From Escherichia coli (GTDB lineage: Bacteria; Pseudomonadota; Gammaproteobacteria; Enterobacterales; Enterobacteriaceae), in NCBI RefSeq assembly GCF_003334385.1, contig NZ_QOWN01000004.1: DNA of 64,000 nucleotides; one strand, written 5' to 3'. Positions 20,264-54,950 of this stretch are shown here, piece after piece. Under the pieces are notes generated by a model that searched no databases, was not told where the DNA came from, and was given only the letters and a program-made list of their open reading frames with translations. The translations under genes and the position numbers were made by a program. Numbering within the stretch: position 1 is the first letter of the stretch; each line of letters opens with the position of its first letter.

Positions 20264-20644
20264 ATGAGTCAGGTTAGCCTGTCACAACAACTGAAAGAGG
20301 GTAATCTCTTTGCGGAACAGTGCCCGTCGCGCGAGGTGTTGAAACACGTCACCAGCCGTTGGGGGGTGTTGATTCTGGTGGCGCTACGCGAAGGTACTCA
20401 TCGCTTTAGCGACCTGCGGCGCAAAATCGGTGGGGTGAGTGAAAAGATGCTTGCGCAGTCGTTACAGGCGTTAGAACAGGATGGTTTTCTTAACCGTATC
20501 GCGTATCCGGTGGTGCCGCCGCATGTGGAATATAGCCTCACGCCGCTGGGCGAGCAGGTGAGCGAAAAGGTTGCTGCACTGGCGGACTGGATTGAGTTGA
20601 ATTTGCCCGAGGTGTTGGCGGTGCGGGATGAACGTGCGGCATAA
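20264..20644 (+). CDS. ytfH: HxlR-family transcriptional regulator YtfH
   Basis: 126 aa from MSQVSLSQQLKEGNLFAEQCPSREVLKHVTSRWGVLILVAL...; the track start at 20153 is an upstream extension. Confidence 0.9.
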   Translation: MSQVSLSQQLKEGNLFAEQCPSREVLKHVTSRWGVLILVALREGTHRFSDLRRKIGGVSEKMLAQSLQALEQDGFLNRIAYPVVPPHVEYSLTPLGEQVSEKVAALADWIELNLPEVLAVRDERAA

Positions 20645-20752
20645 CTGCCGGCTGCGCTTATCCGGCCTACGGTTCATGACTTGTAGGGCGGATAAGATGC
20701 GCCAGCATCGCATCCGACAAAAGTGCCGGATGCGGTTGATGATTTATAGGCC
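20645..20752. repeat. REP/BIME-like palindromic unit cluster
   Basis: gccggctgcgcttatccggcctac ... gtagggcggataagatgcgcc ... tgccggatgcgg: REP-type imperfect palindromes. Confidence 0.7.
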
Positions 20753-22710: not shown

Positions 22711-22899
22711 CAGGGACATCCTTTTATCATCGGGAATACGAAAGAAAAGGGAGAATAAACGCCTTACTTATAGAACAGTGAAGAATGCCACAATTTTACG
22801 CTTTGAAAATGATGACACTATCACAGTTGGCGCATTCATTAACGATAGGGTATAAGTAAAACAATAAGTTAACACCGCTCACAGAGACGAGGTGGAGAA

Positions 22900-23640: not shown

Positions 23641-24187
23641 TTAATTTATGCAGCAGGTCCATCACTTGCTGCACCTCTTCCTGTGTGAGCGCCCCGTCTT
23701 TGGCCCATTGCACGCGACCATCCTTATCCAGCACCACTACAGCGGAACTTTCTTCATCCAGCTGCCAGGCACCGCGCGCGACGCCATTGCTATCGACAAT
23801 AAACTGCGACCAGGGATAAAGCTTTTTATTACTCTCCAGACTGCTGCGCACAAACATCCCTGAACCCGGAATCGCGTCGTCGGTGTTAACAATGGTGGTG
23901 GTCTGGTAGCGATCGTGCGGTAACTTCGCTGATTTAATCGCTTCAATCAGCGTCGCGTTTTTCTCTTTTGCAGAGGTGCGACCAGCAATATGTTGCAGTA
24001 CTCGCACTTTTCCCACTAACTGTGCGCTGTTCCAGGTTTTGTAGCTAAACTGATCTTTATCAAGCACCAACTCGCCTCGATCGGTAATGCCAATCGGCGG
24101 CACTCGCTGACCGGTTTCGAACTGATGTGCGGAAGCCATCATCGGCAACAGCAGGCAGGTGAGTGCCAGAATCTTGCGTAGGGTCAT
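23630..24187 (-). CDS. ytfJ: Periplasmic protein YtfJ
   Basis: 185 aa with signal peptide [20 protein letters not shown]; 3' end overlaps the cysQ 3' end by 11 bp. Confidence 0.9.
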
Positions 24188-26123: not shown

Positions 26124-26297
26124 ATCTTATCCGACCTTTCAGGCCAGATCCTCGGAAGGGGAAGTTGATTAATTTGTGTGAAATACACATTGAAAGCCGA
26201 TTCGAAGAAAGTGAACCGGCATTTTCAGTGGCTAGTATAGCGTAAGGTACTGTAAAGTCGCCAGAGGGTTAAAATTCAGACTGCTGATAAATGCAAT

Positions 26298-26402
26298 ACT
26301 GCCTGATGCGCTATGCCAATCAGGCCTACGCAGTCCTTGCAATATATTGAATTTGGACGATTTTGTAGGCCTGGTAAGGCGTTTACGCCGCATCTGGCAT
26401 AA
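26298..26402. repeat. REP/BIME cluster between ytfL and msrA
   Basis: tgcctgatgcgctatgccaatcaggcctacg ... gtaggcctggtaaggcgtttacgccgcatctggca: inverted REP units. Confidence 0.75.
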
Positions 26403-26445
26403 ATAAAGCGCACTTTATCAACAATCTACATTTGTACCCGTAACG

Positions 26446-33182: not shown

Positions 33183-33467
33183 CGATGTATCTCGCGATTT
33201 TTTTTTGTAACTTTTCCATCTTTTGCTTTTCTCTCCGAGCCGCTTTCCATATCTGCAATCGCATAAAAAACTCTGCTGGCGTTCACAAATGTGCAGGGGT
33301 AAAACGGGGGCACGCTTTGAACGGTGAGTATGAGTGAGGTCGGCTAACTTCCAGCAAGTGGCTATGAACAGCAAAATGGTGGTCGGGTTTGCTTGTTCTT
33401 ACCGTTCAAGCCTTGCAACCGCTGAGAATAATGATGGTGGAATAGAGAGTTTATTTATCGCGGGCAT

Positions 33468-35324: not shown

Positions 35325-35435
35325 GCTATGCCTGATGCCGATTCGTAGGCCGGATAAGGCGCTCGCGCCGCATCCGGCGGTGGTGCGCTGAAGCCTGATG
35401 CGACGCTTACCGCGTCTTATCATGCCTACTGGGAG
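35325..35435. repeat. REP/BIME cluster between ytfQ and ytfR
   Basis: gcctgatgccgattcgtaggccggataaggcgctcgcgccgcatccggcgg ... gcctgatgcgacgcttaccgcgtcttatcatgcctac. Confidence 0.75.
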
Positions 35436-39011: not shown

Positions 39012-40010
39012 TTACGCGTCCGGGAACTCACGGATAAAGCGTTCGACATCTTCAACCATATGGTCGTTGCCGACAAAGAACGAACGGCGCTGGTGCAGAG
39101 TTTCCGGGATGATATCCAGAATACGCTCTTTGCCATCGCTCGCTTTACCGCCCGCTTGTTCCGCCAGGAATGCCATCGGGTTGCACTCATACAGCAAACG
39201 CAGTTTGCCGTCCGGGTGGCTGGCGGTGCTTGGGTAGAGATAAATACCGCCTTTCAGCAGGTTACGGTGGAAATCCGCGACCAGTGAACCGATATAACGT
39301 GAGGTATAAGGGCGGTTGGTGGACTTATCTTCTTCCTGGCAGAATTTAATGTACTTCTTCACCCCGTTCGGAAACTTAATGTAGTTTCCTTCGTTGATGG
39401 AGTAGGTTTTGCCTTTCTCCGGGAAGCGCATCCGTTCCTGGCACAGACAGAAAACGCCCAGCGAAGGATCGTAAGTAAAGGCGTGAACACCGCATCCGGT
39501 GGTGTAAACCAGCATGGTAGAGGAGCCGTATACCACGTAACCTGCCGCAACCTGTTTGTTACCAGGCTGGAGGAAATCTTCTTCCGTTACCGGCGTGCCA
39601 ACAGGCGTAACGCGGCGGTAGATGGAGAAAATGGTACCGACAGAGACGTTAACATCGATGTTGGACGAGCCATCCAGTGGGTCCATCAGCACCACGTATT
39701 TTGCGTGTTCACAGCCTTCAAAGACGACAATCTCATCTTCTTCTTCAGAGGCAATGCCCGCAACGATATCGCGTGCTTTCAGTGCGGCTTTCAGTTTTTC
39801 ATTAGCGAACAAGTCGAGTTTCTGCTGAACCTCGCCCTGCACGTTCTCAGCACCGCTGGCACCCAGGATATCAACCAGTCCTGCTTTGTTGATATCGCGA
39901 TGGATAATCTTGGCGCCCAGTTTTATTGCCGACAGCAAAGCAGTGAGCTCACCGGTAGCATGAGAAAACTCGTGCTGCTTTTCGACAATAAATTCACCTA
40001 ACGTTTTCAT
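39012..40010 (-). CDS. fbp: Fructose-1,6-bisphosphatase class 1
   Basis: 332 aa from [34 protein letters not shown]...; the track ORF extends 61 codons upstream. Confidence 0.96.
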
Positions 40011-40185: not shown

Positions 40186-41559
40186 ATGCGCATTCATATT
40201 TTAGGAATTTGTGGCACGTTTATGGGCGGTCTGGCGATGCTGGCGCGCCAGTTAGGCCATGAAGTAACGGGTTCGGACGCCAATGTGTATCCGCCGATGA
40301 GCACCTTACTTGAGAAGCAAGGCATTGAACTGATTCAGGGTTACGATGCCAGCCAGCTCGATCCGCAGCCGGATCTGGTGATTATTGGCAACGCCATGAC
40401 CCGTGGAAATCCGTGTGTGGAAGCGGTACTGGAAAAAAACATCCCTTATATGTCAGGTCCACAGTGGCTGCACGATTTTGTGCTGCGCGACCGCTGGGTG
40501 CTGGCCGTTGCCGGTACACATGGCAAAACCACCACCGCGGGAATGGCAACCTGGATTCTGGAACAGTGCGGTTACAAACCGGGATTTGTGATCGGCGGTG
40601 TGCCGGGGAACTTTGAGGTTTCGGCGCGTCTGGGCGAAAGCGACTTCTTTGTTATCGAAGCGGATGAGTATGACTGCGCCTTCTTCGACAAACGCTCTAA
40701 ATTTGTCCATTACTGCCCACGTACGCTGATCCTCAACAACCTTGAGTTCGATCACGCCGATATCTTTGACGACCTGAAAGCGATCCAGAAACAGTTCCAC
40801 CATCTGGTGCGTATCGTTCCGGGGCAGGGCCGTATTATCTGGCCAGAAAACGACATCAACCTGAAACAGACCATGGCGATGGGCTGCTGGAGCGAGCAGG
40901 AGCTGGTGGGTGAGCAGGGGCACTGGCAGGCGAAAAAGCTGACCACCGATGCTTCCGAATGGGAAGTTTTGCTGGATGGCGAAAAAGTGGGCGAAGTGAA
41001 ATGGTCGCTGGTAGGCGAACATAATATGCACAATGGCCTGATGGCGATTGCGGCGGCTCGCCATGTTGGTGTAGCGCCGGCAGATGCCGCTAACGCGCTG
41101 GGTTCGTTTATTAACGCTCGTCGCCGTCTGGAGTTGCGTGGTGAAGCGAATGGCGTCACGGTATATGACGATTTTGCCCATCACCCAACGGCGATTCTGG
41201 CAACGCTTGCGGCGCTGCGTGGCAAAGTTGGCGGTACGGCGCGCATTATTGCCGTGCTGGAACCGCGCTCGAATACCATGAAAATGGGGATCTGCAAAGA
41301 CGATCTGGCACCTTCATTAGGTCGTGCCGATGAAGTCTTCCTGCTGCAACCGGCGCATATTCCGTGGCAGGTGGCAGAAGTGGCAGAAGCCTGCGTTCAG
41401 CCTGCACACTGGAGTGGCGATGTGGATACGCTGGCAGATATGGTGGTGAAAACCGCTCAGCCTGGCGACCATATTCTGGTGATGAGCAACGGCGGTTTTG
41501 GTGGGATCCATCAGAAACTGCTGGATGGTCTGGCGAAGAAGGCGGAAGCCGCGCAGTAA
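40186..41559 (+). CDS. mpl: UDP-N-acetylmuramate:L-alanyl-gamma-D-glutamyl-meso-diaminopimelate ligase Mpl
   Basis: 457 aa, [31 protein letters not shown]...GTHGKTTT... Confidence 0.96.
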
Positions 41560-41561
41560 TT

Positions 41562-41695
41562 CGGCCTTAGCCTGATATAGTGTGCGTAGGCCGGATAAGG
41601 CGTTCACGCCGCATCCGGCATTTGAGCATAGTGCCTGATGCGACGCTTGATGCGTCTTATCAGGCCTACAGGTGCACCGCATCCGGCAAACCATA
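41562..41695. repeat. REP/BIME cluster between mpl and yjgA
   Basis: gtaggccggataaggcgttcacgccgcatccggca ... gcctgatgcgacgcttgatgcgtcttatcaggcctac ... ccgcatccggca. Confidence 0.8.
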
Positions 41696-44817: not shown

Positions 44818-44932
<115 letters not shown>

Positions 44933-50725: not shown

Positions 50726-51673
50726 TCAGGACAGGGTGGCGGGGATGATGATTTGTTGCGGTTCGCTGCGCCCGGTTACCTGTGCGATCAATTGGCAGGC
50801 CGCCTGGCGTCCAGCTTCGGCGTAACCAGGATCTACGGTGACGATCTCCGGATGAAGGAATTTCATTAACGGCGTATTACCGACGCTCGCCAGTTGCAAG
50901 GTGTCGATGCGTTGCTCTTGCAGGTATTTACTTGCGCCAAGTGCCAGCGTGTCGGTTGCGCACAGTAAGGCGGTAGTTTCAGGCGTAATCACTTTTGCTA
51001 CGTTCTCATAGCCTTGCTTCATAGCAAGCCCTGGCAGAGCGGCAACGGGATGCAGTTTATGCGCTTTGCAGAACGCCAGGTAGGCTTCGTGACGTCGCTT
51101 ACCGGTCGTCACGTCACTGTGCGGCACGCCGAGATAACTGATATTACGATGCCCCTGGTCATAGAGCCGTTGCATCAGGATCTTGATTGCCCCTTCGTCG
51201 TCATAACAGACCGAAGCAAAGCCTTTTGCGTCACGCGCCAGCAGAACCAGCGATGACTGCCAGTGGGCTAACATTTCTTCTGTTATGCCGGTAAAACCGA
51301 ACAGCACTACGCCGTCGATATTACGCCGTTTTAGGATCCCCAAATGTTCGGCAACTAATTGCGGGGAAAACTGACTTTCCATCATGATTGGGTCGTAACC
51401 TTGTTCATAGAACGCTGGCAGCATGGTTTGAACGGCGAGATTTTCTGACAACGAATCCAGGCGGGTAACAATGATGGCGACCACTTTATCGCTTTGCCCA
51501 CGCATAGCGCGCGCAGAGCGGGAAGGGGAAAATCCATGCTGATTCATCACTGCTTCCACGCGCTCGCGCGTGCGCTGGCTCACGCCGCTTTCGTTATTCA
51601 GCACCCGGGAAACCGTAGATTTCCCCACGCCGCTTAAGCGCGCGATGTCTTTGATGGTCAGCCGATTTTGCAT
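50726..51673 (-). CDS. treR: Trehalose operon repressor TreR (LacI family)
   Basis: 315 aa, MQNRLTIKDIARLSGVGKSTVSRVLNNESGVSQRTRERV... Confidence 0.96.
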   Translation of the reverse strand: MQNRLTIKDIARLSGVGKSTVSRVLNNESGVSQRTRERVEAVMNQHGFSPSRSARAMRGQSDKVVAIIVTRLDSLSENLAVQTMLPAFYEQGYDPIMMESQFSPQLVAEHLGILKRRNIDGVVLFGFTGITEEMLAHWQSSLVLLARDAKGFASVCYDDEGAIKILMQRLYDQGHRNISYLGVPHSDVTTGKRRHEAYLAFCKAHKLHPVAALPGLAMKQGYENVAKVITPETTALLCATDTLALGASKYLQEQRIDTLQLASVGNTPLMKFLHPEIVTVDPGYAEAGRQAACQLIAQVTGRSEPQQIIIPATLS

Positions 51674-51747
51674 CCTGTTGTCCCGTAACGTGTTGTTTAA
51701 TTATTTGAGGCTAACTTTACCCGTGCATTCAGCAATGGGTAAAGTCT

Positions 51748-51779: not shown

Positions 51780-52051
51780 TATATCGCCATAAATGCTACG
51801 AATATTATTGGATTCTCCTTATTATTTGCGGCGCTTTTTTCACTTACCGGAGGTTATATGGAACCTGATCCCACGCCTCTCCCTCGACGGAGATTAAAAC
51901 TTTTTCGGTAAGCCCGTCTTTTCACGGCGTTACCGGATGCGTAAGGCCGTGACGTTTTAACGTCCCTGCTCAGCTTTATTACCTTCAGGTAAGGCTTCGC
52001 CACGCCTGAAGACATTTCTGTACTGTTTCAGACAGTGCGGAGGGACTCCTT
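51780..52051 (+). promoter_or_regulatory. mgtA 5' leader (Mg2+/proline-responsive attenuation region containing mgtL)
   Basis: ~270-nt untranslated leader between the PhoP box and the mgtA start, containing the mgtL ORF; boundaries approximate. Confidence 0.5.
51858..51911 (+). CDS. mgtL: mgtA leader peptide MgtL (proline-rich, 17 aa)
   Basis: ATG at 51858 after GGAGG; encodes [17 protein letters not shown] within the long mgtA 5' leader. Confidence 0.8.
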
Positions 52052-54774: not shown

Positions 54775-54950
54775 ATTCAGATTGCAGACAAAGTGAGCGT
54801 TGTTCATGCCGGATGCGGCGTAAATGCCTTATCCGGCCTACAAATTCAATCAATTGCAGGAATCACGTAGGCCTGATAAGCGTAGCGCATCAGGCAATTT
54901 TGCGTTTGTCATCAGATTTAATCCGGGCATGATAGCCCGGATTTCCATCA
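54775..54950. repeat. REP/BIME cluster plus hairpin between mgtA and ridA
   Basis: catgccggatgcggcgtaaatgccttatccggcctac ... gtaggcctgataagcgtagcgcatcaggca ... atccgggcatgatagcccggat. Confidence 0.75.

Follow-up and report, generated by a model that had tools for sequence, protein, structure and literature searches.

The sequence singled out by the initial annotation, positions 41562-41695 of a 64,000-nucleotide stretch of Escherichia coli DNA (hereafter the window), holds a BIME-2-type cluster of REP units in the gap between the convergent genes mpl and yjgA, one of exactly six REP/BIME loci in the window. We consider it very probable that these elements are classical, vertically inherited REP/BIMEs, that they would act as structures at gene 3' ends and, at mpl/yjgA, also as a gyrase site, and that a variable segment ('island') elsewhere in the window is empty of them for lack of space.

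The window was a segment of the E. coli chromosome that matched the minus strand of the strain 190 record (NZ_CP020520.1) at 100% identity (subtracting the record position from 4355645 gives the window position), and it spanned ulaD to argI, corresponding to approximately 4.42-4.48 Mb in K-12. The flagged sequence was located inside the 155-bp mpl-yjgA gap, which corresponds to K-12 positions 4457159-4457313, with the mpl stop codon at 41557-41559. A search against Rfam also revealed matches above the gathering score for the rpsF leader (2828-2912), for ES239 in the divergent gap between cpdB and cysQ (22711-22833), for STnc450 upstream of paeA (26185-26242) and for the mgtA magnesium riboswitch (51843-51958). 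ES239 was considered as an ERIC/IRU-like dispersed repeat and rejected, as it occurred in a single copy within the window and was by eye unlike the ERIC core. Two pieces of DNA present in K-12 were missing from the window, namely ytfI (approximately 1.2 kb, between cysQ and ytfJ; the site is at 23641-23644) and the chpSB toxin-antitoxin pair (approximately 0.6 kb, between ytfP and ppa; 33307-33434), and neither of these K-12 segments contained a REP. A gene for a 'DNA-binding protein' at 59864-61459, with a very low GC content of 0.33, is a pseudogene in the annotation, interrupted by an internal stop, and treR (50726-51676) was annotated in strain 190 as a pseudogene without its N-terminus.

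The initial annotation had reported at least six REP/BIME clusters, at about 20.65, 26.3, 35.3, 41.6, 44.9 and 54.8 kb; scanning of the whole window revealed canonical units at each of these six loci and at no other (Table 1), with an inventory of 12 full units and five fragments. The REP hairpins were missed by a default short-range inverted-repeat search because they are bulged, and motif, HMM and covariance-model scans were therefore used instead. A scan with the motif GCCGGATGCGGCGT at up to three mismatches yielded 30 matches, compared with 9.4 ± 3.2 in shuffled sequences (0 of 100 shuffles reached 30), and the matches with zero or one mismatch were confined to the six loci. A profile HMM built from the 12 units and run over the window with nhmmer --max, i.e. 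unfiltered, yielded nothing beyond these units at E<0.01; the sole near-threshold match was a chance half-site within fbp (39478-39499, E=0.015). At E≤1, the covariance model of Rfam for naRNA4 (RF02564) matched the six REP loci and nothing else in the window, and this check was not circular, because the model was built from REP325-type sequences elsewhere and did not include the window. De novo repeat search likewise ranked the Y and Z2 REPs first among the repeat families of the window, with units of different loci sharing 82-97% identity across 35-39 nt.

Matches to the 14-mer with three mismatches do arise at chance level in coding sequence, as would be anticipated if GC-rich palindromes arising by chance, or plain intrinsic terminators, and no repeat family lay behind the matches. 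However, the observed motif count was never reached in the shuffles, units of separate loci were similar to each other at the identities given above, the T-tract signature of terminators was absent, and dozens of copies were present per E. coli genome. Refuted by the shuffles, the HMM scan, the de novo repeats and the genome-wide copy number, this explanation retains next to no probability, and we treat the matches as members of the REP family.

Table 1 REP/BIME loci and the variable segment in the window (positions counted from its first letter; indented names are parts of the locus above them).
Feature	Setting	Position	Remarks
Variable segment ('island')	rplI-ytfB, minus strand	4403-13841	limits from comparison with K-12
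Atypical BIME	ytfH/cpdB, convergent	20646-20738	nhmmer E=1.1e-3 and 3.1e-7
 Shortened Y-like unit		20646-20671	
 Z2-length unit		20683-20719	37 nt
 Y half-fragment		20724-20738	
BIME-1-type	msrA-paeA, tandem	26300-26399	nhmmer E=1.7e-5 and 1.7e-9
 Z1		26300-26329	
 L linker		26330-26364	35 nt
 Y-like unit		26365-26399	
BIME-2-type	ytfQ-ytfR, tandem	35328-35429	nhmmer E=2e-9 and 2.8e-8
 Fragment		35328-35340	
 Y		35345-35379	
 Z2		35393-35429	
BIME-2-type (flagged)	mpl/yjgA, convergent	41569-41688	read directly from the sequence; full units, nhmmer E=1.5e-10 and 7.4e-10
 Z-like fragment		41569-41580	
 Y REP		41586-41620	GTAG at 5' end
 Z2 REP		41633-41669	inverted orientation, ends CTAC; 12-nt linker after Y
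 Y fragment		41673-41688	
BIME-2-type	nrdD-nrdG, tandem, minus-strand nrdDG operon	44820-44926	nhmmer E=4.8e-9 and 6.9e-11
 Y fragment		44820-44836	
 Z2		44841-44877	degenerate CTGG foot
 Y		44892-44926	
BIME-1-like	mgtA/ridA, convergent	54807-54896	nhmmer E=3.2e-10 and 2.7e-7
 Y		54807-54841	
 Linker			25 nt
 Z1		54867-54896	

At the flagged locus, the hairpins of the two full units had folding energies of -20.9 and -22.0 kcal/mol, and the whole mpl-yjgA gap was predicted to fold at -63.8 kcal/mol (z=-5.2). The locus matched naRNA4 with 86.2 bits at 41589-41666, against a gathering score of 59.5. The gap contained no separate terminator-like or promoter-like site, and no promoter-like site adjoined it either. 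Comparison with K-12 revealed 152 of 155 positions of the gap to be identical.

With the unit-by-unit y, z1 and z2 calls made against the published consensus sequences, the elements are classical E. coli REP units arranged in BIMEs, namely three BIME-2 (Y+Z2), two BIME-1 (Y+Z1 with a putative IHF-like linker) and one atypical element. The class scheme was that of the y/z1/z2 and BIME-1/BIME-2 definitions as summarised by Ton-Hoang et al. (PMC3333891), following Stern 1984, Gilson 1984 and Bachellier 1999. All 12 full units were imperfect palindromes of 26-37 nt, 11 with an exact GTAG/CTAC foot and one with CTGG, and their hairpins, each with an internal mismatch and in alternating orientation, ranged from -7.6 to -22 kcal/mol. 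The loci at 35.3, 41.6 and 44.9 kb consisted of alternating Y and Z2 units separated by linkers of 4-15 nt, as is typical of BIME-2. The ytfQ-ytfR BIME sits in the ytfQRT-yjfF ABC-transporter operon directly past the binding-protein gene ytfQ, a classic position; it matched naRNA4 with 67.3 bits at 35348-35426, again above the gathering score, and it was identical to K-12 at 137 of 139 positions. The remaining four loci scored 27.8-41.1 bits with the same model, under the gathering score.

The elements at msrA-paeA and mgtA/ridA combined Y and Z1 units with a long linker that carried a candidate IHF site, as is typical of BIME-1. The putative sites, ATTCAATATATTG in the msrA-paeA linker (26340-26352) and ATTCAATCAATTG in the mgtA/ridA linker (54844-54856), each differed from the consensus WATCAANNNNTTR by one mismatch, and an Rfam match to ES036/CssrF at 26322-26364 corresponded to the linker of the 26.3-kb element. 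The two composites (26274-26427 and 54779-54922) were inverted copies of approximately 150 nt with 78-79% identity that extended into the linker and the flanks; this similarity beyond the REP units suggests that the whole BIME-1 composite was once copied as a single unit. At the atypical ytfH/cpdB locus, the first unit was 5 nt shorter than the K-12 copy, and its stem began 2 nt beyond the ytfH stop codon (20642-20644).

Analysis of the positions agreed with the placement in core intergenic regions that had been claimed for the clusters: all six were located in gaps at gene 3' ends, three of them between convergent and three between tandem genes, whereas divergent promoter gaps held no such cluster. 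K-12 contained all six at orthologous sites with the same unit composition and 93-99% identity. This agreement in site and units shows that all six copies are old and vertically inherited. In E. coli, knowledge of REP/BIMEs goes back about 40 years (PMC12306157), and with all six loci shared with K-12 the elements represent known biology of little significance in themselves. A 1.5-kb query containing the BIME matched all of 5426 E. coli genomes, at a median of at least 36 places, with no more than 40 pieces counted per record.

The density of the clusters, described as high in the initial annotation, turned out to be close to the genome average, with six loci against 4.9 expected per 64 kb (Poisson P=0.37). 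This expectation derives from the 355 REP elements in K-12 that EcoCyc contains, as cited in PMC12306157, and a count of 584 REP units has been given for the same strain (PMC3333891). From the latter count, 8.05 full units were expected and 12 were observed (P=0.12), a comparison to be read with the units being clustered.

The annotation had further reported no REP in an island at 4.4-14.2 kb, limits that are close to those set by the comparison with K-12 (4403-13841), and this absence was borne out: none was found there by the motif, HMM, covariance-model or de novo scan. The motif GCCGGATGCGGCGT had two matches within the segment (9937 and 12507), both in coding sequence, with three mismatches each and at chance level; the best nhmmer matches had E≥17, and the de novo search returned no repeat family there, just weak matches within genes, in two or three copies and attributable to chance. 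A GTAG...CTAC-flanked sequence at the boundary of the segment (4403-4451) was considered as a degenerate REP and rejected, as it did not score with the HMM or the covariance model; it is more likely a small terminator hairpin of the TRAP gene.

This absence had been taken to be consistent with an island distinct in composition and history from a REP-colonised core, i.e. with foreign or recent DNA that the REP-spreading machinery of the host has yet to colonise. We regard such an origin as an unlikely explanation of the absence. The part of the claim that held is the distribution itself, with REP/BIMEs in core intergenic regions and none in the island; the contrast between the two carries, within this window, no statistical or biological force. 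The probability of finding zero REP loci in the island was 0.38 by length, 0.65 by intergenic bases and approximately 0.7 per eligible gap, of which the gap-length statistics are partly circular, the REP-holding core gaps being long through their REPs. The island was an eight-gene operon with gaps of 52, 42, 20, -4, 9, 9 and 9 bp and a 212-bp divergent promoter region, so compact that its intergenic DNA came to 464 bp, compared with 6266 bp in the core. Among its gaps of at least 60 bp, a single one was non-divergent, the 111-bp boundary gap, which already holds the rplI terminator. In addition, the REP-free run extended over 1-20645 and thus took in 11.2 kb of core on both flanks of the island, and further REP-free core runs measured 8.9, 9.9 and 9.1 kb. 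Owing to the scarce intergenic room, the non-significant probabilities and the equally empty core flanks, the absence of REPs from the island is uninformative. The empty island would be explained by lack of space, a compact operon with hardly any 3' intergenic DNA, and a special history would not be needed.

The content of the segment likewise supported the claim of a distinct composition only in part. The operon comprised three TRAP transporter genes and five enzyme genes (FAD oxidoreductase, CoA transferase, enoyl-CoA hydratase, sugar-phosphate isomerase and ketoreductase), and the segment also contained the 5' part of a divergent TetR gene (13597-14244, plus strand) that overlaps ytfB. The TRAP genes (GC 0.44) and the TetR gene (0.40) were below the core range, as foreign DNA might be, whereas the 6-kb enzyme block, with a GC content of 0.526 against a core mean of 0.52, was core-like. 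The segment was also missing from many genomes: among 5426 complete E. coli genomes, it was present in part or whole in 3268 and at a coverage of at least 80% in 1446, and 2539 genomes were in the state of K-12, which has yjfZ at rplI-ytfB instead. That its history is distinct is nevertheless doubtful. No tRNA gene was found in the window, no integrase or IS was annotated in it, and de novo repeat search detected no flanking direct repeats at the island boundaries. In the B2 strain ATCC 25922, rplI-ytfB was likewise occupied by the five enzyme genes and TetR (94% identity), with an MFS transporter and a hipBA-like pair in place of the TRAP genes, and this version was likewise without REP. In K-12, the ytfA pseudogene corresponded to the 3' 402 bp of the island TetR gene (99% identity), and next to it a 102-bp remnant of the ketoreductase gene was retained (81%).

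Because hallmarks of mobile elements (tRNA, integrase, IS) are absent, a copy occupies the same site in a B2 strain, the segment is widely present and K-12 keeps the ytfA remnant, the island gives the picture of a long-established resident, subject to deletion or remodelling to varying degrees. The rplI-ytfB site is a long-standing variable site with multiple states, transporter swapping and deletion, and not the site of a recently arrived mobile island.

On a larger scale, the avoidance of mobile DNA by REPs is real and already published, and it was reproduced here with plasmids and phages; together with the dozens of copies per E. coli chromosome, it speaks for a foreign origin of a REP-free segment. 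Among the matches of the 1.5-kb BIME query that were listed for the 5426 E. coli genomes, 131 of 180,461 places were on plasmids. An 84-nt BIME core matched 138 of 72,556 plasmid records, with K-12 laboratory constructs or megabase-sized entries accounting for many of these, and 40 of 50,697 phage records, which were mostly short unannotated fragments, Salmonella whole-genome contigs deposited as phages and one transducing phage with the bio locus. One phage record, MG065686.1 (Campylobacter phage A18a), contained four matches to the E. coli Y REP, the best of them at 100% identity (e.g. 110192-110226), suggesting that the record contains E. coli DNA. In Pseudomonas, 'REP deserts' coincide with mobile elements, with a lower length limit of 25 kb (PMC3390384); however, the segment analysed here measured 9.4 kb, well short of this limit. 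A genuine shortage of REPs in variable DNA may exist but is not demonstrable from a single segment of 9.4 kb. We caution that the absence of REPs from a compact-operon segment of approximately 10 kb is unusable as evidence of foreign origin, because fewer than one REP would be expected there and the core on either side is likewise devoid of them.

As to the origin of the six loci, REPs would, on the existing literature, be non-autonomous remnants that owe their spread to TnpA-REP (RAYT), a single-strand HUH transposase whose single gene in E. coli, yafM, lies outside the window; the enzyme would recognise the GTAG tetranucleotide together with the bulged hairpin, and the copies would later have become fixed at gene 3' ends. 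RAYT is known to need GTAG and a stem mismatch, and the tnpA-REP gene is missing in some B2 strains (PMC3333891). At the RNA level, the stable hairpins of the flagged locus would alone provide structure where the convergent mpl and yjgA transcripts end, and by analogy they most likely block 3'-5' exonucleases or serve as transcript-end structures. Newbury and co-workers reportedly found, in 1987, that upstream mRNA is protected from 3'-5' exonucleases. At the DNA level, the Y unit of the flagged BIME would be a preferred site of DNA gyrase, as published for BIME-2, which gyrase prefers, binds and cleaves, the y units especially (PMC6379681). The roles in RNA stability, termination, gyrase binding and IHF binding are those which we infer from other REP loci. 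REPs within 15 nt of a stop codon were associated with translational down-regulation by Liang et al. 2015, as summarised in PMC12306157, and ytfH, with its stop codon 2 nt from a REP, could be subject to such regulation.

The two BIME-2 loci that exceeded the gathering score of RF02564, 41589-41666 and 35348-35426, might instead be nucleoid RNA genes whose transcripts, chaperoned by HU, would connect REP cruciforms and compact the chromosome as the main role of these loci. Such a role has a precedent, since naRNA4 of REP325 acts in HU-dependent nucleoid condensation according to a summary in PMC6907758. However, RF02564 effectively models any Y-Z2 BIME, and a match thus indicates the type of sequence and not its function; both strands scored, as is expected of a palindrome; the flagged gap has no promoter-like site in or beside it; and the experimental demonstration is limited to REP325 (PMC6907758). 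We therefore consider nucleoid RNA genes an improbable alternative, and retain 3'-end structures with a gyrase site as the probable role of the flagged BIME. Still further from this, REP-bearing core and REP-free variable DNA might differ in nucleoid folding, with HU-chaperoned RNAs from mpl/yjgA and ytfQ/ytfR bridging cruciforms and segments like rplI-ytfB being left out. This is very improbable; if it were true, the lack of REPs would belong to the structural make-up of variable DNA and be more than a by-product of gene packing.

Comparison with known systems placed the elements close to those described in E. coli. The Y-Z2 pairs at mpl/yjgA and ytfQ-ytfR fit the full 77-position model of naRNA4/REP325 above its gathering score; REP325 itself lies in the yjdM-crfC gap of K-12, whereas the loci here are different ones. 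With the REP deserts of Pseudomonas (PMC3390384) the island shares the idea of variable or mobile DNA without host REPs; in contrast to these deserts of at least 25 kb, it is 9.4 kb long and no emptier than its core flanks. The REPIN/RAYT systems (PMC3116915; PMC2817692) likewise consist of REP doublets in inverted arrangement that share a conserved recognition tetranucleotide, and the BIME-1 composites here are mutual copies of approximately 150 nt; unlike in those systems, no RAYT gene was present in the window and the copies exhibited no sign of recent movement. From the REP/PU elements of E. coli (Y, Z1, Z2) nothing substantial distinguished the units, apart from the degenerate, atypical element at 20.65 kb and several decayed flanking half-units: they have the same length, the same GTAG foot, the same bulged imperfect hairpin and the same alternating orientation. 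Their arrangement is likewise that of E. coli BIMEs, with the same short linkers in BIME-2, long IHF-type linkers in BIME-1, extragenic sites at gene 3' ends and hundreds of copies in the genome.
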